Positions 41,609 through 57,204 of a DNA stretch of 64,000 nucleotides are shown here, piece by piece. Source of the stretch: Phycisphaerae bacterium (GTDB taxonomy: Bacteria > Planctomycetota > Phycisphaerae > UBA1845); contig DAOQSN010000013.1 of assembly GCA_035356615.1 (NCBI GenBank), positions 28,882 to 92,881 on the forward strand, given 5' to 3'. Made by a program: the position numbers and the translations under genes. A model generated the notes under the pieces. It was given only the letters and a program-made list of their open reading frames with translations. It searched no databases and had not been told where the DNA came from. Each line of letters opens with the position of its first letter. Position 1 is the stretch's first letter.

Positions 41609-44600
41609 TCATGGACCGGTGAACGCCTGCTGAAAGGCCGCCACGTCGGCCAGGTCCACGTCGTCATCGCCGTCGAAGTCCAGCGTGCCGCAATCAGGAA
41701 ACACGCCCCCCCGCGGGCCGGTCAGGCAGTCGGCAAGGGCGGTCAGGTCGTCGTAGTCCACGCGTCCATCGCCGTCCGCGTCGCCGTTGGCGCGCCGCAG
41801 CGCCCGCACCACTCGGAAGCCTATCTGAGCGAGCGTCGAGCGCGGATCGGCGAAGTTGCGCCGGTTGGTCGCCAGGCTCTCCGAACCGGTGGGTGGATGC
41901 ACGGTGCTGTAGCTGCCGCCGCGGACGGTACGAACGGCGAAGCTGCCCGGCGTGTAACGTCCCTGTAACCACTGATAGACGTTGCCGGACATGTCGAAGA
42001 GCTGGAACGTATTGGCATTGGCGTTCGTGGTGAACGAACCGCCGTGGTTCGAGCCGTCGTAGTAGCCCACCGGCGTGGTGCTGTTGTCGAACGGGTCGCC
42101 GCTGTTCTTGTAGTTGGCATCCGCGCCGGTCAGCGTGTCGCGTCCGCAGCCGTACACGGTGTTGCGCGCGAGGACGCTGTTCCAGGCGGCGGCCTTATAC
42201 CATTCGTTGTAGCCGTCGGCGAAGTCGACGCTGACGTCCGGGTTGTTGTAGCCTTCGTCCATCGGCAGGCGGTACCCGCGGTAGTTCTCCACCAGGGCAA
42301 GGCGTTCGTCATCGTTCAGGTCACGCGTGGACCACAGCGTGCCCGTTGCGGTGACCGGGCGCCAGCCCGCCAGGTCCGCGTCGCTGGCTTCGTTGTAGCA
42401 ACGCTGCTCCGGGCTCATCCCCTGGTCCAGCGTGAGCCAGTTGCAGTACTTCAGGGCCCCGTACCAGCTTGCGCCCGTAACGGGGTGGGCTTCGTAGCCG
42501 GTCTGCACCGAGTACATTTGCGTGCCGTCGTCGTAACTGATCCGCCCCCCCGCGGCCGGCGCAAACATCTTCACCGTGCGCGTGCCGGGCGAGGCTCCGG
42601 TTTCGCGCGCGGCGGTCGTGTTCACATACACGTCGCCCGTCGTCGTGTGGAAGAACATGTACGCACCGCGCGGGGCCGCAGACGTGGTTAGCGCGTCGTT
42701 CAGAAACGCCGCGAACTCGGCGTTGGTGGTGTGATACGCGGACATCTCGAAGTTGTACGCCGGCCCGCCCGGTTGGAGCACGTCCGCCGCGACGTGCGCC
42801 GACGACACGGCGAAGTGTGGATTCACCAGCGTCAGGCTCACGAGCCGCGTGCAGCTTACCGCGTTGGTGAGGTCGGTAAACACGACTTCGGCCTGGTTCT
42901 CGCCTTCCTGCAAGGGGGGGATGGTGGCGTTGCCCACGTCAATGGCGACGACGATGTGCGTCGTGCCGGCAGACGGGAGACTATCGACCACCGGCCCGGT
43001 CCCGCCGTTCAGCAGCACCCAACTGTTTGGTTCCGACGATTCGGCCCGCCACTGGATCGCGCCCGTGTCGTAATTCACGAGCGTGTAGATCGCCGTGGGA
43101 TCCAGGATCGGCCCCCCGGGCACGCCGTAGGCGGTCAAGCCGGTTCGCGGTCCAACCGAAAGCGTCTCCACAATGTGCAGGCGAACCGTCCGCGTCTGCA
43201 CGTGACCCGTGTAGGTGTCCGTGAACTGCACGGTGCCAACATACGTACCGTGGTACAACTGCAGTGCCAGCTCGTTCACCGAGACCGTCATGGTCGCAGG
43301 CGCGCCGCCGGGCAGCACCGTCACGGTGGCGGAACCGACATCCAGCCAATCCACGTCGGCCGCCACGTGAACGTCGATGCCCCTGTCCGTGCGGGCATTT
43401 GTAAGTGTATAGACTTGGAAGGGCAGCGGATCCAGCTCCGGCCCGACCTCCCAGGGGTCCTCGGTCGGCGTGATGAAGATCGGGTCCTGGACCACCACCG
43501 TGACCGTCTCCTCGAGCGTGGCCGAGAGGTTGTCGTTGCCGGGGTCAGTGAAGCGAAAGACCAGCACGGCGTCGTATTCTCCCACCGCCAGAGAGGCGGC
43601 GTCCTCATCCACGCTTACGTCGAAAGACAGGCCGGCGCCCGGCGTGAGCGTCCCGCTGAGCGGGTACTGCCCCGTGATGGACACCCACGGTTGGGCACAG
43701 CTTACCTGATATTGCAGGTTGAAACTTACGAGGCTGCTCAACGCAAACGTGCACGGGTTCGGGTTGATAAACGGGCCGCCGTAGAAACCGGTGAAGACGG
43801 CCGCGTCGTCCGGCGGCGTGACCGCGATGGGCCAGGCGACGTTCACGGTGGCGTTGCGGGTGCGGACTTCATTGGTCCGCGTGTTGCGCCAGGTGGCGAC
43901 GGCCACGTGGGTACCGGGGCCGAGGGCGTTGGCCTCACTGTTGAGCGTGAGGGTCACGGCGCCCTGTTGCCCGGCGTCCAGCGTGCCGCTCGCCTGCCCA
44001 GGCGTCGGCCCGGTGACGGTCAGCCAGGTCTTGTCCGCAGTCAGAGCCCACGGCATCGCGGCAGCCGAGCGGTTGGTGACCTCATAAAGCTGCGTCGTCC
44101 CCGCGGCCTGGCCGGAGCGGTACATACCGGCGTAACTGATACCGCCGCCCGGAGTCAGCAGGAACGGCTCGCGCAGATGCAGTAGGACAAAGCGTTTCTG
44201 CGTGGCACCGCTGAGAGAGTCGGTTACCGTGATCGCCGCCACCCGGCCGGGGTTGCGGACCACCCGAAACCCGACTTGGGCGTCGGCGAGGTCGGGCGCC
44301 AGCGGCTGGCGGGTGGCGTTGGTCAAGTACGCCGACTCCGGCGCGTCATCCCACCCACCGCCGCGCGCCGCCTGTTGCAGGTACGCATTTCCCTGCACCC
44401 ATTCGGCTGCGTTACCACATAGGTCGAACAAAGCGAACCCGTTGCCGGACGCGGTCGTCGGCGTTTCGCCGTCGCCGAGCACGTTTGCGCCATCGAAGAA
44501 ACCACGTGGTGTGGTTCCGCCGACTGTACAATCGTCCTCGTCCTCGAACGGGTCACCGCTGCACCGGAAGTTCGCGTCAGCGGCCGTCAGGGTACCGCGT

Positions 44601-47600
44601 CCGAAGCCGTAGGTGTGCTCGCCACCGGTCGCGTCGTCCCAGGCGGCCGCCTTGTACCACTCGTTGTAGCCACTTGCGCCCGCCTCGGCATCCAGCGGCA
44701 GGCGATAGCCTATGGTCTCGGCTACTATGTTTGCCGGGTCGAATGCCCCGGCAATCCAGTCGGCATCGCTTACGGTAACGGGGTGCCAGCTACTCAAGGC
44801 CGTGCTCGGGGCTTCCGTGTAGACGCGCAGCTCGGGCGGCAGGCCCGCGTTCAGGGTCAGCCAGTTACAATATTTGAGGGCTCCGTACCAGGTTACACCG
44901 GTAACGGGGTGATCCGTGTACCCGTCGTCAACCACGTAAGCGCCGCCGACAAACTGTATATGGCCCGCGCCGGCATCGTAGAGCAGCGGTCCTGCCCCGT
45001 CCGTACCCGCGGCGGGTTCCTGCGTGTCGTGTATATGCACATTGCCGGAGTCAGTGTCGAAATACATGTACTCGCTGCGTGGCCCCGGGTCAACCCCCAC
45101 GGCATCCTGATACGCGTTGTTGAGGAAGGCGGCGAAGTCGCTGTTGCGCACCTCGAATTGCGCCACCCAGTAGTCGTAGGCGGGCCCGCCGGGCTGAGCG
45201 GCATCTGCCGGCACCCAGGCACCGCTGCCCGGCGGTGCGGGTGACACACCGAGCGTATCCACCGCTTCTGACACCCGCAAACGTGCCTCCGCGGTGGCAC
45301 CGGGCGGAACGCGCGGACCGGCCGAGGTGTCCAGGGCCAGCCAGGCGGCGTCAACCGTCACGGACAACGTGTCCAGCGTGTAATCGCCCGCGTTCTCGAT
45401 GGCGAGAACGAACTCGGCAAGATCGTAGGGGCCGCCGACGTACGCCTCCAGACGCTGGGGGGGTACGGGAGTGAGATCGAACTGTGTAAGTGTGTCGGGG
45501 AGGGCCTGCGCCACTCGAAAGCCGAGGAACCGGTAGGCCGCGCTTGCTGCCTGCGAGTTGCGCCCGTCCGCGCGCAGGAGCGGCGCTTGAATCGCGTTGG
45601 TGTAGTTGCCGCCGCGCGTGGCGCGTTCCGAAGCGGTGCCGCCCACGTCCTGCATCCATTCGGATACGTTGCCCGTCATGTCATAGAGGCCGTAGCCGTT
45701 GGCCGTGTCGTTGGTGATGATCGGCCCGGCGATCTCGTGCACCCCATCATAGAACCCCACCGGTGTGGTGTCGGCGAAGGGATCAAGACTCAAGTAGAAG
45801 TTCGCATCGGCGACGGTAATCACGTTGCGCCCGAAACCGTAGTCGGCGTACAGGACGGTCTCCGGCAGCCAGGCCGCCGCCTTGTACCATTCGTTGTAGG
45901 TGCTGACCGCCGCGGCTCCGTCGTCCACGGGCAGGCGGAAGCCGCGCCATTGCCGCAGCTCCGCCGGCGTGCCGAGGGGGCACCACTGATCGGCCGGGTA
46001 GCCTTCGTGATACACCCGCTGGCCGGACATACCGTGAATGAGCGTCAGCCAGTTGCAGAACTTCAAGGCGCCGTACCACGAGACGCCGCCGACAGGGTGG
46101 TTCTCGAAGCCGCTCTGCGGGACGTAGCGACCGCCGGTGAAGCTGATGTAACCGTTGGCGGCCGCATCGAAGAGGACCGTGCCCGTTCCACTGGTTCCCT
46201 GGGTACCGGTCTGCGACGTGTGCAGGTAGACGTTGCCGCTGTCCACGTCGAAATACAGCCACGCGCCGCGTTCGTTGTTGACGTTGGCGAGCGCGTCATT
46301 GAGGAACAGGCAGTATTCGTGGTTGGTGACCTCGAAGCGGCCGATGCGGAAATTGTACGCAGGGGGGGCCGCGGCGTCGCCGGTGACCAGCGCCAGGTCG
46401 AGGACCACGCCGGCCGCGGTGATGACGAGCGTCACGCGGCGGGTGCTCTCGAACGCCGGTTCGAAGGTGGTGTCCGTGAAGATCAGGTCGCCGACGTACA
46501 CGCCCGCCGGCAACTGCGCCGCCACGTCGTTCGGTTCGATGGTCACCAGGGTGCTGCCGTTGGGCTCCAGGATCAGCCCTTCGGTCGGGTTGACGTCGAG
46601 CCAGTCGGCGCCGGACTCCGGGACAAACTCGGCTGACCACCAGCGCTCGCCGAGGGCATTGCCCGCCAGCGTGCAGGACGACGAAGGCGGGGTGAACTCC
46701 CCCCCGAGCGGGCGCGTGAAGCTGATATCGCCGGCCGGCGTTACCCAGTCGTTCACGGTCAGTCCGATGGTACGCTCCACGGTGAAGCCGCTGCCTGGAT
46801 CGTGCTGGAACCGCAGCGTGCTGTCATAGCTGCCGATGTCGAGGATCTCGGCCGCGTAGGTGAGCGTCGCGGCGACCTGCGTGCTGCCCAGCGCGGGGAG
46901 CGTACCCTGATAAGTGTTCAGGGCAAACCAGCTCGACGTCGGTTGTACCTCAACGCGCCAGGGAAGCGTCTCGCTCGCAAGGTTGCTGATCTGCCACTGG
47001 TGTTGCGCCGGCGCGAAGGGTCCCCCGGCCGGGCCGCTGAACAGTTGCGTGCCTGATGGTGCCACCGAGAACCACGGCAACACTTGCAGACTGACCGCGC
47101 GGACCCAGACGCTCCCCGTGCAGCCGTCTGCGAACGTCACCTCCGCAGTGAAGGTGCCGAGGTCCAGGCCGGCGGCCGCACCGGCGTCGATCGCAATGGT
47201 GACCGGCGCGGTGCCCTGCGCCGGGACTTCCCCGCCGACCGGCGGCTGGGTACCGTTCAGCGTCAGCCAATCCAGCCCCGAGGGCGTCGCCGTCGTTTCC
47301 TCCCAGGTGGCCGACCAGAGCACCGGCAGGTCCGAACCGTTCGTGAGTGTATACAGCTTGCTCCCCGGATTCGGCGTCCCACGATAGCGCATCGACGCCG
47401 CCAGGCCGCCGGAGGGCTCGACGTTCAGGGGCTCCGTAACCGTCAGGCGCAGGAGACGCTCGATGACCGTTCCCGGCGGCGGACCATACACAATACCCAC
47501 GGTGCCGATGTTCTCGCCCAGCGTCAGTTCATCGGTCGCGCACGCCGGCGCGACACGCACCGTGAACGCGTAGCTCTCCCCGGGGACCAGCGTGACGTTG

Positions 47601-48856
47601 ACTGGCAGACCGCCCTCGACCTCCAGCCACTCCGCGTCCAGCGTCACGCTGAACGTCGCGTCCTGGTCCGTCACGTTCGTTACGGTGTACTCGCGCGCGC
47701 CGGCGGCATCACTGTAGGGTCCGCCCCACGGTCCTGATACGACGTAGTCAGCCTGCGGCGTCACGAGTACGTCATCGTGCACCGCCTGCACGACGCGGAA
47801 CCCCGTGACGTTGCTGGTCGAATTCGCCGCCCGGTCGGCCCCGAGTGCCGTACGTAGCGAGGACGTCGTGCTGTTCCATGATCCGCCGCGATTGCGCCGG
47901 TCGGTGGCGGCCACGCCTTGATCCTGCATCCATTCCCATATGTTCCCGGAGGCATCATACAGACCGTAATAGTTCTGCTCCGCGTTGGTTTGATAGGTTC
48001 CGCCGTGGTCGCTACCATCGTAATACGCGACGGGCGTGGTGCCGTTGTCGAACGGGTCGCCGCTGTAGCGGAAGTTCGCGTCCGGCCCCGTAATCACATC
48101 CCGCCCGAAGCCGTACAGATGGTTGCAGCCGGCGGGCAGACAGCTCTCGTCCCAGGCGGCGGCCTTGTACCACTCATTGTAAACGGCCGCCGCGTCCGTG
48201 CGGGCGTCCATGGGCAGGCGATAGCCGAGATAGCCCAGCAACGCCTCGCGTTCCGCGCTGTTCAGGTCCCGCACCGCCCAGTTGGCAGCGCTGATCGTGA
48301 CCGGGCGCCAGCCCGACAAGTTCGTGTTCGCAGCCTCGCCATAGACGCGTTCAGCAGCGGTAAGCCCCGTTGCTAGCGTCAGCCAGTTGCAGTACTTGAG
48401 CGCCCCATACCATGACACGCCGATGACCGGATGCTGCTCGCAGCCGGACGCGATCAGGTAGACCCCCTGCCCGACGTTGTAGCTGAGGCAGCCGCCGACG
48501 GCCGCGCTGAACATCAACGTCCCCGACCCCGACGTACCCTTCTGGCCGGTGCTGCTGGTGTTGATGTACACGTCACCGCTGTCGGTATCGAAGTACAGGT
48601 ACGCGCCGCGCTCGTTGTTGAGGTTGTTGAGCGCGTCATTGAGGAACGCGGCGAACTGGGCGTTGGTCACCTCGTGCCTGCCGACGCGGAAGTCGTGCAC
48701 CGGCCCACCGGGTTGCCCATCAAGTCCGGGGACGTAGGTGAACTGCGGGACCGGCGGGTCCGCTTGCGTCGAAGCCACGACCCAAAGTACTGCCGCGATC
48801 GCGACGTCCACGGCGGGCTTGCGCCGCGTCGGTAGGCCACGCCAACGTGCAGCCAC
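41609..48856 (-). CDS. Giant (2415 aa) surface protein: 4 FGE-sulfatase-fold (SUMF1/EgtB/PvdO-like) domains separated by Ig-like spacers, with a C-terminal dockerin-like pair
   Basis: The signal anchor is AVDVAIAAVLWVVAST. FGE-fold units lie at about aa 50-358, 830-1117, 1222-1535 and 2028-2352. Each runs from F.(V/I)G..EVTN..F..FLND through HPV.GVSWYGALK(Y/F)CNWLT and YNEWYKAAAW to GFRV. The C-terminus is DADGDGRVDYDDL...DFDGDDDVDLADV. Confidence 0.85.
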   Translation of the reverse strand: MAARWRGLPTRRKPAVDVAIAAVLWVVASTQADPPVPQFTYVPGLDGQPGGPVHDFRVGRHEVTNAQFAAFLNDALNNLNNERGAYLYFDTDSGDVYINTSSTGQKGTSGSGTLMFSAAVGGCLSYNVGQGVYLIASGCEQHPVIGVSWYGALKYCNWLTLATGLTAAERVYGEAANTNLSGWRPVTISAANWAVRDLNSAEREALLGYLGYRLPMDARTDAAAVYNEWYKAAAWDESCLPAGCNHLYGFGRDVITGPDANFRYSGDPFDNGTTPVAYYDGSDHGGTYQTNAEQNYYGLYDASGNIWEWMQDQGVAATDRRNRGGSWNSTTSSLRTALGADRAANSTSNVTGFRVVQAVHDDVLVTPQADYVVSGPWGGPYSDAAGAREYTVTNVTDQDATFSVTLDAEWLEVEGGLPVNVTLVPGESYAFTVRVAPACATDELTLGENIGTVGIVYGPPPGTVIERLLRLTVTEPLNVEPSGGLAASMRYRGTPNPGSKLYTLTNGSDLPVLWSATWEETTATPSGLDWLTLNGTQPPVGGEVPAQGTAPVTIAIDAGAAAGLDLGTFTAEVTFADGCTGSVWVRAVSLQVLPWFSVAPSGTQLFSGPAGGPFAPAQHQWQISNLASETLPWRVEVQPTSSWFALNTYQGTLPALGSTQVAATLTYAAEILDIGSYDSTLRFQHDPGSGFTVERTIGLTVNDWVTPAGDISFTRPLGGEFTPPSSSCTLAGNALGERWWSAEFVPESGADWLDVNPTEGLILEPNGSTLVTIEPNDVAAQLPAGVYVGDLIFTDTTFEPAFESTRRVTLVITAAGVVLDLALVTGDAAAPPAYNFRIGRFEVTNHEYCLFLNDALANVNNERGAWLYFDVDSGNVYLHTSQTGTQGTSGTGTVLFDAAANGYISFTGGRYVPQSGFENHPVGGVSWYGALKFCNWLTLIHGMSGQRVYHEGYPADQWCPLGTPAELRQWRGFRLPVDDGAAAVSTYNEWYKAAAWLPETVLYADYGFGRNVITVADANFYLSLDPFADTTPVGFYDGVHEIAGPIITNDTANGYGLYDMTGNVSEWMQDVGGTASERATRGGNYTNAIQAPLLRADGRNSQAASAAYRFLGFRVAQALPDTLTQFDLTPVPPQRLEAYVGGPYDLAEFVLAIENAGDYTLDTLSVTVDAAWLALDTSAGPRVPPGATAEARLRVSEAVDTLGVSPAPPGSGAWVPADAAQPGGPAYDYWVAQFEVRNSDFAAFLNNAYQDAVGVDPGPRSEYMYFDTDSGNVHIHDTQEPAAGTDGAGPLLYDAGAGHIQFVGGAYVVDDGYTDHPVTGVTWYGALKYCNWLTLNAGLPPELRVYTEAPSTALSSWHPVTVSDADWIAGAFDPANIVAETIGYRLPLDAEAGASGYNEWYKAAAWDDATGGEHTYGFGRGTLTAADANFRCSGDPFEDEDDCTVGGTTPRGFFDGANVLGDGETPTTASGNGFALFDLCGNAAEWVQGNAYLQQAARGGGWDDAPESAYLTNATRQPLAPDLADAQVGFRVVRNPGRVAAITVTDSLSGATQKRFVLLHLREPFLLTPGGGISYAGMYRSGQAAGTTQLYEVTNRSAAAMPWALTADKTWLTVTGPTPGQASGTLDAGQQGAVTLTLNSEANALGPGTHVAVATWRNTRTNEVRTRNATVNVAWPIAVTPPDDAAVFTGFYGGPFINPNPCTFALSSLVSFNLQYQVSCAQPWVSITGQYPLSGTLTPGAGLSFDVSVDEDAASLAVGEYDAVLVFRFTDPGNDNLSATLEETVTVVVQDPIFITPTEDPWEVGPELDPLPFQVYTLTNARTDRGIDVHVAADVDWLDVGSATVTVLPGGAPATMTVSVNELALQLYHGTYVGTVQFTDTYTGHVQTRTVRLHIVETLSVGPRTGLTAYGVPGGPILDPTAIYTLVNYDTGAIQWRAESSEPNSWVLLNGGTGPVVDSLPSAGTTHIVVAIDVGNATIPPLQEGENQAEVVFTDLTNAVSCTRLVSLTLVNPHFAVSSAHVAADVLQPGGPAYNFEMSAYHTTNAEFAAFLNDALTTSAAPRGAYMFFHTTTGDVYVNTTAARETGASPGTRTVKMFAPAAGGRISYDDGTQMYSVQTGYEAHPVTGASWYGALKYCNWLTLDQGMSPEQRCYNEASDADLAGWRPVTATGTLWSTRDLNDDERLALVENYRGYRLPMDEGYNNPDVSVDFADGYNEWYKAAAWNSVLARNTVYGCGRDTLTGADANYKNSGDPFDNSTTPVGYYDGSNHGGSFTTNANANTFQLFDMSGNVYQWLQGRYTPGSFAVRTVRGGSYSTVHPPTGSESLATNRRNFADPRSTLAQIGFRVVRALRRANGDADGDGRVDYDDLTALADCLTGPRGGVFPDCGTLDFDGDDDVDLADVAAFQQAFTGP

Positions 48857-51279: not shown

Positions 51280-51498
51280 CTACTGCGCTGGCGCAGCACA
51301 CCCAGATGATCCGGGCGCCTTGGGCGGTACCGCTTGAGGCGGAGCGGGTGTACCCCCGAGGATTCGCTGCTTCCAATCCGGCCAAGTTCCGACCACCCTA
51401 CTGGCCTGCTCCAAATGCTCGACGAACGCATCGCGTTGTCCTTGGTGCGCCTTTGCTTGAACCGGCATTTGCTTCGCTTTCTGCTTGTCAACCTCCAT
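51280..51498 (-). CDS. Small ORF (72 aa from the ATG) overlapping the stop of the deaminase gene; candidate partner protein
   Basis: The ATG at 51498..51496 is preceded by GGAG with a 7-nt spacer and overlaps the deaminase TGA (51490..51488) by 11 nt. The sequence is MEVDKQKAKQMPVQAKAHQGQRDAFVEHLEQASRVVGTWPDWKQRILGG followed by a Pro-rich tail. Confidence 0.4.
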   Translation of the reverse strand: MEVDKQKAKQMPVQAKAHQGQRDAFVEHLEQASRVVGTWPDWKQRILGGTPAPPQAVPPKAPGSSGCAAPAQ

Positions 51499-53341
51499 TG
51501 CCAAGCTCCGTGACCGCGCTGCGGGCTTTGTTGAACATGTCTCCGGCGACGAACTCCAGGTCCAGGTACGACGCGGGCAACATCTGGAGCCGGAGCCCGC
51601 TTTGCCCAGCCTTCCACTCCATCACCCGCCCCGCTACGTTCTTCCGCTCCACAGGATACCCGGAACCGAGCCGGATTGAAAAGAGGTCGAAAAACCGCCG
51701 GGGACCAACGCCGACGAAGGGCTCGAAGCATACCATCCGGCGGTCATCAGGCGGGGACCCCAGGTCGGCAAAACCGACCTGGATCGAGTCCGAATGAAAC
51801 TCGGCAGCCTTCGACTTCTCGTACGGCTCGATGAACACAACACGGTGGATTCCAGCCCCCACAATGTGCTTGGCGCAGTTGTGGCACGGGAAGGTGGTGC
51901 AGTAGAGTGTGCCGCCTTGGGTAGGCGCTCGGATTCGACCGCAGGAAAGCAGAGCGTCCATTTCCGCGTGCACTACGCGCCCAAACTCGGTCAAGTCGCG
52001 GATACGGCTTGCGTCGAGGGCCTCACGGACCTTCTCGCGGTCAAGCCCAGTCTTCTCCGCGCGGTCTAGGATCTCATCGATGATCTTCTGCTGTTCGACC
52101 TTGTTGGAATCTTCGCCCCTCATGTAATCGCGCCCGTCCTCCTGGTCCTCGATCCGGTGCGTCTTGGGATTGCGCACGGGCCAATATCGTCCGCCGTTTG
52201 CACGAGGGCAGTCATTGGCACCGGTGGCGACGACCTGCTCGTCGACCGCCACGACGGCGCCGACTTGACGGGACAGGTCGGCGGAGCTGAGTGAAGCCGC
52301 GAAGGCGAGAAACATGGCGTACTCATCGAAAGTCGGGGTCACGTACGGGTTCCCGAAGAGGAGTTCGAGAATCCGCCACACGCTGTCTTTCAGATGGTCG
52401 TCCTGCCCATCGATCCGCACGAAGAAGTCGGAGAGGTGAAACGTGTCGGCAACTCTCTGGCCGTGGGGTAGGTGCTCGTTCTCATCGCGGTCGATGAGCT
52501 CGTTCGCCTTGGCGTCGGATATCGATTTGTCTTTGGTCAGGTAGTCAAACCGCCGTTTTTCGTCAGCATGCACACCGATGAGGTAGAACCCCTGCGGATA
52601 GATCTCGCGCAGACGACCAACCTCGTCGGGGTGTTTGAGCGAACTGATGACGTACGCACACCTGGGTACATGTTGCGGGCACCCGTTCTCGTCCTTGCTC
52701 CTTTGGGAGTTGATGTACGCGGCAGCGCCAAGAGCCAGTATCGAGTTGTCACCTGATGTAGCGCGCGCCTCGTTCCCCGCATCCATGAGGCCACTGAGCC
52801 GATCGTATTCGGAGCTTCCGGAACGTGGGATGTTCTCGACGATCTTCGGGATCACGTCTTGCGTGATCCGGATCTGTCTGACCGAGTAGCCAGCCTTTCT
52901 TAGCCAGTCGTCGAGAATACCCCGCACCTTCTGCAGCTCTGTGCCGACCGCTCCAATCAGTGCAAACACCAACTCGGACTCGGAGAAGGCCCTCTGCAAC
53001 AGCCCAGACCGACCTGCCCCTGACTCTGCTGTTGCCATGGGCACGGGGACTGTGACTTCAGCACCGTGTCTCTCCGGGACAGTTTCCCTCTGCGGCGTCA
53101 AGCCGGGCGCAGCATCGACGGGCGTACCCGTGAGAGCGGCAATGACCTCGTCACGCAACTTCTCCGCACCAGGCGAGTTGCCTTGGAAGGTGAGCGATCC
53201 GGTCGACGGGTACCAGTTCAGGACTCCGCCTGCGGGCGTTCGGAGTTGCTTCTGGTTCGGGTTCAAATCGCGCCACACACCACTGATGTGCTGGAGCTTC
53301 TCCCTGAACTCCTCGTAGCTGCCGGTAAACCGTACGTTCAT
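51488..53341 (-). CDS. Anti-phage dCTP/deoxycytidylate deaminase (AvcD-like: kinase-like P-loop-derived domain + zinc deaminase) with an extra N-terminal module
   Basis: The C-terminal deaminase reads TPTFDEYAMFLAFAASLSSADLSRQVGAVV, HAEMDAL (zinc His plus catalytic Glu) and TTFPCHNCAKHI (PCxxC). The middle region ELVFALIGAVGTELQKV...YVISSLKHPDEV..LREIYPQGFYLIGV has the layout of the nucleotide-kinase-like domain of the defence deaminases. Residues 1-75 are additional. Confidence 0.82.
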   Translation of the reverse strand: MNVRFTGSYEEFREKLQHISGVWRDLNPNQKQLRTPAGGVLNWYPSTGSLTFQGNSPGAEKLRDEVIAALTGTPVDAAPGLTPQRETVPERHGAEVTVPVPMATAESGAGRSGLLQRAFSESELVFALIGAVGTELQKVRGILDDWLRKAGYSVRQIRITQDVIPKIVENIPRSGSSEYDRLSGLMDAGNEARATSGDNSILALGAAAYINSQRSKDENGCPQHVPRCAYVISSLKHPDEVGRLREIYPQGFYLIGVHADEKRRFDYLTKDKSISDAKANELIDRDENEHLPHGQRVADTFHLSDFFVRIDGQDDHLKDSVWRILELLFGNPYVTPTFDEYAMFLAFAASLSSADLSRQVGAVVAVDEQVVATGANDCPRANGGRYWPVRNPKTHRIEDQEDGRDYMRGEDSNKVEQQKIIDEILDRAEKTGLDREKVREALDASRIRDLTEFGRVVHAEMDALLSCGRIRAPTQGGTLYCTTFPCHNCAKHIVGAGIHRVVFIEPYEKSKAAEFHSDSIQVGFADLGSPPDDRRMVCFEPFVGVGPRRFFDLFSIRLGSGYPVERKNVAGRVMEWKAGQSGLRLQMLPASYLDLEFVAGDMFNKARSAVTELGNGG

Positions 53342-53399
53342 GTGTTGCCTCGGTTAGCTGGCTTTGCGTCTCAGCGCCGCTCGGCTGTGGGGACCCCAA

Positions 53400-53597
53400 C
53401 TACCCACCATCATACGACGTACTGCGCGGCAGGTCGAGTGGTTCCTCTGCTTCCTCCTGGTCGAGCACGTCCCAGCCCAGGGCCCTTAGTAACGGATTGA
53501 TCACCTTGCTGCGCGTGGGGGTCTCCTTGAGCTGCTCGCGGCGGAGCCTGGGAAGGCGGGCGCGCAGGTCCTCGATCTCTTTGATGAGCTGCTGCAT
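53400..53597 (-). pseudogene. Truncated HsdR_N-like ORF (65 aa); probable remnant of a restriction or other defence gene, or a small adaptor
   Basis: MQQLIKEIEDLRARLPRLRREQLKETPTRSKVINPLLRALGWDV matches the E.(Q/T)TR..(L/V)I.P.L..LGW opening of type I restriction-enzyme N-terminal domains, then stops after 20 acidic residues. GGAGG lies upstream. The ORF ends 58 nt before the deaminase start. Confidence 0.4.
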
Positions 53598-53916
53598 GGG
53601 ATGAGTACCTCCGGGAGTGCCACGACGACGCAAAGGAAACACCTCGACAGGGCTAACGCGTCGCGCGGGCTCATGTGGCGAATCGTAACCTGGGGGTCAG
53701 GTCGGTTCAAGGTCGAGCATCGAACCGGCCCGCTTGGGCGCGGGGATGGCAACCCAGGGGAACGTCTGCTGCTCGCTTTCCGCCTCGGCGGTCGGACGTA
53801 ACAGACACGCGCGGGAAATGACTGCCGGGTGACGACGTGCTCGGCATCCAGTTCGGCCCGTTCGAAGACTGCTCCGGCCGGGGAGCGCACCGGTGACGAT
53901 GGACGCGGGACGGCCT

Positions 53917-55800: not shown

Positions 55801-56070
55801 ATGGACGACGATGCGCTCGACCTTTGCGGGAAGATCTGCCCGTATCCCGTGGTGGCGATCGTCCGGGAAGTGGCGCGGCTGCGACCGGGCCAGAAGCTCC
55901 GGTGCATGGTGGACGATCCGCTCGCCCTGAAGTCGGTGCCCGAGGAACTGGAAGAGTTTCCCGATGTATCCCTCACGATCAGCAGCCGTGGCAGCGTGTG
56001 GGAAGTGATCGTGAAGAGACAGTTGAAAGGCAACCAGGACCATGAACATGAACGAGACCACGGGCCATAA
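55801..56070 (+). CDS. TusA/SirA-family sulfurtransferase
   Basis: LDLCGKICPYPVVAIVREV contains the CP.P active-site motif. The ORF is 89 aa. Confidence 0.8.
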   Translation: MDDDALDLCGKICPYPVVAIVREVARLRPGQKLRCMVDDPLALKSVPEELEEFPDVSLTISSRGSVWEVIVKRQLKGNQDHEHERDHGP

Positions 56071-56653
56071 CGCGCCGACTCCCGGCACCCGCGGTGTCAC
56101 GGAGCGGGCAGGGGGCGCCACTCGTCCCGATGTTGAGGAACGCCTCCGGCAGATTCCCACCGGGCAACCCGGGCGGGGAGAGACCGGCCGTCTGACCGAG
56201 CCCGCCTCTCCTGAGCCCCGCCGCACGACGCGGCGCAAGCTGAGCAACCCCCTGTTCCTCGTGGGCTGCTTCGCCGTCCTCAACGTCATCATGTACCTGA
56301 CCATCCAGAAGTTCTGGATCGGCGGCAGCAGCTTCCTGCCGTTGATCGGGATCCTGGGAGACAACCACGGCTTCCTCTTCGCTTTCCTGGTGAACGTCGG
56401 TGTCGTGGCGGGGGCCCTGGTGGGTGCACTCAGCAGTGGTGAGTTCCGCCTGCGGCTTCCCCGGAAAAGGGATTTGGCCAAAGCGATCGTGGGCGGGTTC
56501 CTGATCGGAATGGGTATCACGGTGGCGCCGGGCACGTGCACCACCGCCTTTGTCACCGGCATACCGATGCTCTCGGTGTCCTCGTTTCTGTCGGTGGCGG
56601 GCATCTTCATCGGCGCTCATCTGATATACGGCCACACCCTGGGGAGGCAATAG
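56042..56653 (+). CDS. YeeE/YedE-family sulfur-compound transport membrane protein (first half-size unit)
   Basis: The polytopic C-terminal 130 aa contain IVGGFLIGMGITVAPGTCTTAF. The first ~70 aa are disordered, so the true start may lie downstream. Confidence 0.6.
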   Translation: MNMNETTGHNAPTPGTRGVTERAGGATRPDVEERLRQIPTGQPGRGETGRLTEPASPEPRRTTRRKLSNPLFLVGCFAVLNVIMYLTIQKFWIGGSSFLPLIGILGDNHGFLFAFLVNVGVVAGALVGALSSGEFRLRLPRKRDLAKAIVGGFLIGMGITVAPGTCTTAFVTGIPMLSVSSFLSVAGIFIGAHLIYGHTLGRQ

Positions 56654-56655
56654 AC

Positions 56656-57200
56656 ATGTCATTTCCACTGCTGGCAACGCTGGGCGTGTTGTTCGGGATC
56701 GGCTTCGGCTACTTCGTGCAGCGGGCGGGGCTCTGCTTCGCCCACGGCCTGGGGGAGATCTACTTAGGCAGAGGCAAGCGTATTACCCGGATGTTCCTGG
56801 TGGTGTTTACGATCACCAGCGTGGGCTTCCTCCTGAGCGGGTATGTTTCTGACGCGCTGGGGCTGAAGGCCGTCGGCCAACTGCGCGGCTTTGGGTTCTA
56901 CAACGTGCTGTCCGGCATTCTGTTTGGGGCGGGGATTGCCCTGTGCGGCGGCTGCATTCTGGGTACCCTGCGCCAGCTCGGCGAGGGGAACCTCATGTAC
57001 CTGGTCGTGCTGGTTGCCTTGATTCCGGGAATGGCCCTGGTCGTGTACGGCCTCGATCCGCTCCTGGAGAAGGGTTACCACGTGGAGAAGCTCCTGCTTC
57101 CCGGACTGTTGGGCGTCGCGGCGCCGTACGTGACGGCCACGCTGGCAGCCGGTGCCGTGATCTGGTTCCTGGCCATCCGCAAGCGGACTCCTCGGACACG

Positions 57201-57204
<4 letters not shown>
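56656..57204 (+). CDS. YeeE/YedE-family sulfur-compound transport membrane protein (second unit)
   Basis: The ATG at 56656 follows directly after the upstream [19 protein letters not shown] and [13 protein letters not shown] are the conserved Cys-containing helices. Confidence 0.75.

Follow-up and report, generated by a model that had tools for sequence, protein, structure and literature searches.

An anti-phage dCTP deaminase with an additional N-terminal module

We analysed a 64,000-nucleotide stretch of a Phycisphaerae bacterium contig (DAOQSN010000013.1, positions 28,882 to 92,881; hereafter the window), which carries on its minus strand a gene for an anti-phage dCTP deaminase whose body is preceded by a small N-terminal module and a linker. 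A sequence-only reading of the same DNA had described about 75 unassigned residues followed by a Pro/Ala linker and a kinase-like domain, and the translated open reading frame (ORF) agrees exactly: residues 1-75 occupy window positions 53117..53341 (minus strand) with the very letters that had been quoted, and Met102 and the Pro/Ala stretch are as described. The gene is divided as follows, with the evidence for each part in brackets (AF2, AlphaFold2; pLDDT, predicted local distance difference test).

51488..53341, minus strand: deaminase ORF, 617 amino acids (aa) (ORF reading)
53126..53341, minus strand: N-terminal module, residues 1-72 (AF2 model, Foldseek, hhalign, family profile)
52988..53125, minus strand: Pro/Ala-rich, predicted disordered linker, residues 73-118 (pLDDT, length variation, codon differences)
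52346..52987, minus strand: P-loop kinase-like domain, residues ~119-332, with GAVGT at 130-134 (NF041025, Foldseek)
51488..52345, minus strand: Zn-dependent dCMP/dCTP deaminase domain and C-terminal helix, residues ~333-617, with the stop codon (PF00383, motifs, Foldseek)
53348..53351, minus strand: Shine-Dalgarno-like GAGG, 6 nt upstream of the ATG at 53341 (read from the sequence)

The body of the protein (residues 119-617) is, judged by its sequence, a full member of the anti-phage dCTP deaminase family. The NCBIfam model of that family, NF041025, matches residues 123-556 at 460.2 bits (cut-off 400), the PADLOC dCTPase model matches residues 119-606 (E 1.6e-161) and Pfam PF00383 matches residues 338-504 (E 1.5e-15), while the motifs HAE (458-460) and PCHNC (485-489) are invariant in 77 sequences. 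Foldseek matched the body to dephospho-CoA kinase, adenylate-kinase-related proteins and dCMP deaminases; a solved structure of the dCTP deaminase family was not found. An identical protein in the databases carries the name 'anti-phage dCTP deaminase [Phycisphaerae bacterium]'.

As the sequence-only reading held, the two-domain architecture usually described for this family does not include the module: NF041025 starts only at residue 123, and the characterised members lack it. The Escherichia coli AW1.7 enzyme, with its P-loop at G29/C30, and Vibrio cholerae DcdV (VC0175; 532 aa, described as a two-domain PLK+DCD protein) belong to the same family as the body of the window protein (NF041025, PADLOC dCTPase), but begin directly with the P-loop domain, without module and linker.

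Residues 1-72 are a real, self-contained, detachable domain, present in a single copy. A profile built from 58 modules (A1) and searched against 1.84 billion proteins found 827 cluster representatives at E<=1e-3, of which 289 were at E<=1e-10. AlphaFold2 gave the module alone (A1) a mean pLDDT of 89.4, and in the full-length model, made from a 77-sequence alignment, the module stood at ~89-96 against an overall pLDDT of 84.4. Residues 78-111 of that model fell below 50, and among homologues the linker ranges from 32 to 61 aa (median 44) with no conservation of sequence, so that these ~45 residues are predicted to be a disordered, fast-evolving tether.

That the module is unassigned was also upheld, in that the precomputed Pfam assignments of all 120 best full-length homologues list deaminase families only. 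No Pfam, NCBIfam or PHROG model matched residues 1-110 significantly, and nothing in Pfam or NCBIfam covers residues 1-118. The module is matched at positions 3-77 by PDLC05003 (E 5.9e-9), a model of the PADLOC candidate defence system PDC-S35, and no paper describing either the module or PDC-S35 was found in the literature searched. When the 76-aa module was used by itself in a word-indexed search for homologues, nothing was returned; homologues were recovered instead through the full-length protein and the profile. Sequence searches of the Protein Data Bank (PDB), run with the module and with its profile, brought up nothing beyond noise such as TEV-site 'ENLYFQG' tags or de novo helices. A supposed second module copy was rejected: it lies in the C-terminal tail ('GxVLxWKPE..LRLQMLP'), reached a domain E of just 0.17-14, and belongs to a tail that module-less proteins have too.

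Evidence that the N-terminus is translated

Had translation truly begun near the internal Met102, as the sequence-only reading allowed, the extension would be an annotation artefact or a functionless relic. About half of the close relatives do lack the module and begin just ahead of the kinase domain; the module-less proteins among the best 120 homologues are ~505 aa long and start shortly ahead of the P-loop. The ATG at 53341, however, is the earliest start codon past the upstream in-frame stop and is preceded by the Shine-Dalgarno-like GAGG, and in 79 of these 120 homologues the module stands at the protein's own extreme N-terminus, typically as M-x-x-RFTG. We also compared the gene codon by codon with three homologous genes, counting synonymous-only and amino-acid-changing differences. 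Codons 1-72 gave 28/21, 25/23 and 23/32 (synonymous-only/amino-acid-changing), whereas linker codons 73-118 gave 6/25, 11/26 and 8/21. The comparison shows, at the level of codons, the signature of purifying selection on codons 1-72 as protein, and a start at Met102 is rejected on that account. With the high predicted confidence of the fold and the 827 homologous clusters of the module added to the conserved N-termini, the artefact has next to no probability and we regard it as effectively refuted.

A predicted TBP-like fold, probably related to the N-domain of RNase H3

The predicted order of elements is β1(4)-α1(9-15)-β2(22-27)-β3(30-34)-β4(39-44)-β5(49-54)-α2(58-71), and in the AF2 model this topology matches the layout of TATA-binding protein (TBP) domains, S1-H1-S2-S5-H2 (PMC3597702). 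When the model was compared with 350,542 PDB chains by Foldseek, the best match was 4py5_A, the complex of Thermovibrio ammonificans (Ta or Tam) RNase H3 with an RNA/DNA hybrid (E 2.7e-3, probability 1.0, TMq 0.62, root-mean-square deviation 2.6 Å over 65 columns, 22% identity), and the next PDB match was ~20-fold weaker (E 0.058). From its 65-column length and the sequence register, the match would fall in the N-domain of the enzyme. The profile-profile search and structure prediction that the sequence-only reading had recommended thus yielded a TBP-like fold, and pointed to the RNase HIII N-domain.

For the profile comparison, the RNase HIII N-domains of 114 PF11858-annotated proteins and of the Bst and Tam sequences (116 in total) were aligned and set against 225 modules with hhalign, giving a probability of 82.5% (E 1e-5, score 28.9), compared with a maximum score of 16.3 over 100 column-shuffled controls and 12.0 for the reversed control. 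Smaller comparisons gave 86% and 72%, and E ranged from 5e-6 to 3e-5 over the variants. Probabilities of 72-86% are suggestive yet under the usual 95% level, and global mode gave 25%. PF11858 itself matched neither the query at E<=10 nor any of 148 family members at E<=1, and Pfam TBP found no match in the window protein, which has a single copy of the module as against the two repeats of TATA-binding protein. We hold the predicted TBP-like fold with good confidence, and consider remote homology to the RNase H3 N-domain (Pfam DUF3378/PF11858) probable, not proven.

The likeness extends to the build of the two domains. Both are ~70 aa long, stand at the extreme N-terminus, run β-α-β-sheet-α with the helices covering one face of the sheet, and are tied to a catalytic domain by a flexible linker; both carry the motif aromatic-x-S/T-G-x-hydrophobic-x-F-Q-G, which includes hybrid-contact residues. 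Single-copy TBP-like N-domains of RNase H3 are seen in PDB 4py5, 2d0a and 3vn5. The module differs in its family-specific invariant W23, W43 and Asn42, in counting four strands beyond helix 1 (the sheet of Ta RNase H3 is described as three-stranded), in a linker of 32-61 aa against 3 in Ta RNase H3, and in being attached to defence effectors (here the P-loop kinase and deaminase) rather than to an RNase H2-type nuclease.

Comparable domains are known from other defence proteins. A viral structure library gave weak matches (E 0.02-0.05), among them proteins with the N-domain of RnlA/LsoA, and the RnlA/LsoA N-domains are of the same fold class (PMC8266594). Like the window protein, the HEPN toxins RnlA and LsoA are anti-phage effectors preceded by RNase H3-N-like TBP domains (TBP1 and TBP2), and TBP-like domain 1 of RnlA is needed for binding of the RNA substrate. 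Those domains, however, show no sequence relationship to the module, occur in tandem packed on the HEPN domain instead of tethered, serve to bind the substrate of the RNase itself and are not known to sense infection. Prokaryotic Schlafen (pSlfn) defence nucleases include a TBP-like domain among their presumed sensor modules, in 1.5% of pSlfn proteins; there too a TBP-like domain sits on a defence effector, but the effector differs and the two are likened by fold class only. RnlA TBP1 and the Schlafen fusions are precedents for TBP-like domains in defence proteins. The module represents a new, unannotated family of domains with a predicted TBP-like fold, and the window protein is a variant, new in its architecture, of an already known defence enzyme.

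A frequent and portable accessory

To count how often deaminases carry the module, we searched metagenome contigs with a body-only profile made from module-less proteins and checked the frame that runs upstream of every match; the module frequency of 66% in our first homologue list was set aside as biased, the query itself having contained the module. Forty loci had the module, 37 were closed by a stop codon without it and 3 could not be assigned (40/77). The module is thus a frequent, optional accessory of about half of the close family members. The sequence-only reading held that the observation would lose its point if the module were a routine, already annotated part of most family members; it is unannotated, but it is a frequent variant and no rarity. 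Some module-less relatives (L035/L036, L045, L093 and L039) had other in-frame upstream stretches of 78-133 codons that do not match the module and could be alternative N-terminal extensions or merely open non-coding frame.

Parsimony on a neighbour-joining tree built from 100 deaminase bodies required at least 11 gains or losses of the module. Among body positions co-varying with its presence there was no clean discriminator, only four conservative swaps, for which reason a docking surface cannot be proposed; the lack of discriminating positions and the disordered linker fit a tethered, independent domain.

The sequence-only reading had asked whether the module is fused to other defence effectors, and fusions to a TIR domain (PDC-S35), a multi-transmembrane protein and DUF1653 were found, together with tandem copies. 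The best 150 of the profile matches include 12 members fused to the Cap12/Pycsar TIR domain PF10137, deaminase fragments, DUF1653 fusions, a 428-aa multi-transmembrane protein, several proteins with C-terminal regions of no assigned family, and proteins with two or three modules in tandem. The tandem proteins P0148, P0154, P0174 and P0183 are short bacterial proteins made of two or three module copies and, as two-repeat TBP-like proteins of bacteria, their sequences are reminiscent of the two-repeat architecture of TBP. One further candidate, a 2357-aa repeat protein (P0167) with nine partial matches confined to the helix-1 region, was treated as a false positive.

The TIR fusions connect the module to PDC-S35 (PDLC05003-05007), which is a candidate defence system only. 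All 148 scanned family representatives matched the PDC-S35 model, and module+TIR proteins of ~250 aa, from Burkholderia lata, Jannaschia seohaensis and a Paludisphaera plasmid, matched it end to end (1-245 of 245, E ~1e-105); genuine PDC-S35 proteins match PF10137 as well. PDC-S35 proteins have the same N-terminal domain as the window protein, followed over their ~250 aa by a Cap12/PycTIR-type TIR domain, whereas the window protein continues into the P-loop kinase and deaminase and has no TIR domain. The module is accordingly a portable accessory, joined also to other effectors of abortive-infection type.

In species-representative genomes we found 18 module loci, comprising 9 full-length deaminases (Phycisphaerales, Pirellulaceae, four Pseudomonas, a Syntrophobacteraceae metagenome-assembled genome (MAG), an unclassified MAG and Chlorobiaceae), 7 TIR fusions, 1 truncated deaminase (in a second Syntrophobacteraceae MAG) and 1 stand-alone module. 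Module-bearing homologues are present in culturable Pseudomonas and Burkholderia species. The module was not found in viral contigs or PHROGs, and the plasmid search gave a single match, a PDC-S35-type module+TIR gene on Paludisphaera borealis plasmid PALBO1 (2897-3718). This gene, annotated merely 'nucleotide-binding protein', adjoins an IS5 transposase, a VapC toxin and an integrase, surroundings consistent with carriage on a mobile element.

The open face of the sheet and a proposed sensor

In the Ta RNase H3 complex the exposed face of the N-domain sheet lies across the minor groove of the hybrid. On the DNA strand, Tyr43 and His28 stack against deoxyriboses and a phosphate is bound by Ser45 and Ser47; on the RNA strand, 2'-OH groups are contacted by the Gly52 amide and Glu27, and the backbone is touched by Arg32 (PMC4132731). 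In Bst RNase H3, substituting the equivalents of Tyr43 and Ser45, or Gln54 (at the place of Ta Gly52), lowers activity and substrate affinity, with a 40-fold reduction for Gln54 (PMC4132731). We placed these contact residues on the module through the hhalign and N-domain alignments and scored their conservation over the 225 modules.

Ta Tyr43 / Bst Tyr46: module position 44, Y/W/F in 91%
Ta Ser45 / Bst Ser48: module positions 46-47, S/T in 84% at 46 and 91% at 47
Bst Gln54: module Gln53, 96%
Ta Gly52 / Bst Gly55: module Gly54, 100%
Ta Arg32: module Arg34, 84%

The alternation of residues along β-strands suggests that V40, N42 and Y44, and S49, T51 and Q53, face the open side, while L41 and W43, and L50 and F52, would face the helix-covered core.

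We propose that the module is a tethered sensor or regulator of its effector that binds duplex nucleic acid, a reading we find evenly poised between right and wrong, yet the likeliest of those considered. Under this proposal the open β-sheet face would bind the duplex, the leading candidate being an RNA/DNA hybrid or similar A-form duplex from phage replication or transcription, because the hybrid-discriminating residues are retained. Binding would localise, cluster or de-repress the effector, and infection would thereby switch on dCTP deamination or, in the TIR fusions, NAD+ cleavage. It is from architecture and fold that we infer nucleic-acid binding, the ligand and the sensory or regulatory role, and the same two lines bear on the sensor or regulatory module that the sequence-only reading had suggested. 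Of the architectural arguments, the strongest is that the PDC-S35 TIR proteins have no other non-effector part than the module, and that the module is exchanged among unrelated effectors; as the only domain of those ~250-aa fusions that is not the effector, it is their only candidate sensor.

Several observations weigh against this proposal. The module does not conserve the residues corresponding to Tam Glu27 and His28; its median net charge is a weakly basic +1 (that of RNase HIII N-domains is -2), and TBP-fold domains need not bind nucleic acid, as the domain of AlkA-type glycosylases does not (PMC3597702). Within the window, the gene does not appear to lie in a defence island. Relatives without the module, the characterised E. 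coli and Vibrio enzymes among them, evidently defend, and for this reason the module cannot be the family's only route of activation; it would add or change an input and not be essential to catalysis.

The module might instead be a protein-protein interaction domain without any nucleic-acid ligand, serving phage-protein recognition, oligomerisation or autoinhibition. Sensing of phage proteins by a small domain at the N- or C-terminus is common among single-protein defence systems, and TIR and dCMP-deaminase effectors are typically controlled by their oligomeric state. A net charge near neutral would suit such a role, as would the tandem-copy proteins, in which modules can sit side by side like the two repeats of TBP, and some domains of the TBP fold make no contact with nucleic acid (PMC3597702). 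The best-conserved residues of the open face (the aromatic at 44, S/T 46-47, Gln53-Gly54 and Arg34) are, however, the hybrid contacts of RNase H3, and a sensor of phage proteins should diversify, while this face is near-invariant from Planctomycetota to Pseudomonas. A docked autoinhibitory interface is further made less likely by the lack of body positions that co-vary with the module. We judge an interaction domain of this kind rather unlikely, although it is the chief competitor of the duplex-binding sensor.

A receptor for a small molecule or nucleotide signal, as in other effectors of Cap12/PycTIR type, is very improbable. PF10137 TIR effectors are normally activated by cyclic nucleotides (from the family description and the PADLOC PycTIR matches), and the TBP fold falls within the broader helix-grip group of ligand-binding domains (PMC3597702). 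On the other side, PDC-S35 and the window deaminase are single-gene systems with no cyclase (PADLOC 'S' series), the 72-residue domain, a single sheet with two helices, shows no evident pocket in the model, and its conserved residues lie on the flat face of the sheet.

Genomic neighbourhood and a small downstream ORF

The neighbours of the deaminase gene in the window are housekeeping genes: a HemN-like radical SAM gene, TusA, sulfur-transport genes, DUF4190 and FtsK. An 80-aa ORF (53400-53642, minus strand) in the interval that separates the deaminase from the HemN-like gene matches the first 35 positions of HsdR_N at E 0.003, below threshold, and may be the remnant of a decayed defence gene. 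Elsewhere, homologues with and without the module adjoin MmeI-like or XamI/Eco57I restriction-modification genes and large helicases. At loci L020, L024 and L025 the deaminase is flanked by an MmeI-like type IIL restriction-modification gene (~1330 aa) on one side and a Helicase_C protein of ~1130 aa on the other, and at L022/L023 it adjoins restriction-modification genes of XamI/Eco57I type; the recurring MmeI-like/helicase setting suggests a recurrent defence-island cassette.

The surroundings also bear on a further reading, itself a form of nucleic-acid binding, in which the module would bind an inhibitory RNA of the host, as in a type III toxin-antitoxin pair (DifV-DcdV), and the deaminase would stay off until infection brings about the collapse of host transcription. 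In V. cholerae the small RNA DifV, encoded 5' of the gene, inhibits DcdV post-translationally; a domain of TBP/RNase H3-like kind could plausibly bind RNA duplex, and in the window a 575-nt gap lies upstream of the deaminase gene. DcdV, however, answers to DifV without any module, the isolated N-domain of RNase H3 did not bind dsRNA in published work (PMC4132731), and TIR fusions would require an RNA partner of their own. Rfam searches in and upstream of the gene gave nothing credible, no candidate RNA was found upstream, and module-bearing and module-less relatives have the same genomic neighbours. We consider such an RNA partner improbable, and retain the tethered duplex-binding sensor as our proposal.

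Directly 3' of the deaminase lies a small conserved ORF that is independent of the module.

51280..51504, minus strand: small ORF, 74 aa, overlapping the 3' end of the deaminase gene, with the conserved motif F..HLE.A...V..WP.WKQ..LG

Across loci the motif reads F..HL(E).A...V..WP.WK(Q/R)..LG, in an ORF of ~35-75 aa directly 3' of the deaminase and often overlapping it. It occurs in L001-L008, L020-L026 and 53 of 80 metagenomic loci (L027-L106), with or without the module. Pfam gave nothing for the ORF, and among PHROGs it matches phrog_38465 weakly (E 4.7e-6). It is probably a second gene of the dCTP-deaminase subfamily, independent of the module and previously unreported, and possibly a regulator or antitoxin-like partner.

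Elsewhere in the window, a 2415-aa ORF (41609-48856, minus strand) with four FGE-sulfatase (formylglycine-generating-enzyme-like) repeats and BACON_2 encodes a giant surface-type protein unrelated to the module. The TusA gene (55801-56070) adjoins a Sulf_transp gene (YeeE/YedE-like) that is split over two overlapping ORFs (56042-57204, plus strand; model positions 187-308 and 1-156).

Implications for sensing by abortive-infection effectors

More broadly, and more tentatively than for the window protein, the module may stand for a family of bacterial TBP-like pattern-recognition domains for nucleic acids, sister to RNase H3's hybrid-binding domain, which would detect phage hybrids or duplex intermediates and switch interchangeable abortive-infection effectors (dCTP deaminase, TIR NADase, membrane proteins); we think this possible but less probable than not being the case. 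For the sensing of infection by nucleotide-depleting defence enzymes, published work infers an indirect trigger, such as transcription shut-off or loss of an inhibitory RNA. A portable domain common to dCTP deaminase and TIR effectors, with a face like that of a hybrid reader, offers a concrete candidate for the sensor. If true, the pattern-recognition reading would provide the infection-sensing step that is still missing for about half of the dCTP-deaminase subfamily and for PDC-S35. The orphan PADLOC candidate PDC-S35 gains a predicted fold and a hypothesis, and the TBP-domain superfamily would gain a branch in bacterial defence, including the tandem-copy bacterial proteins.

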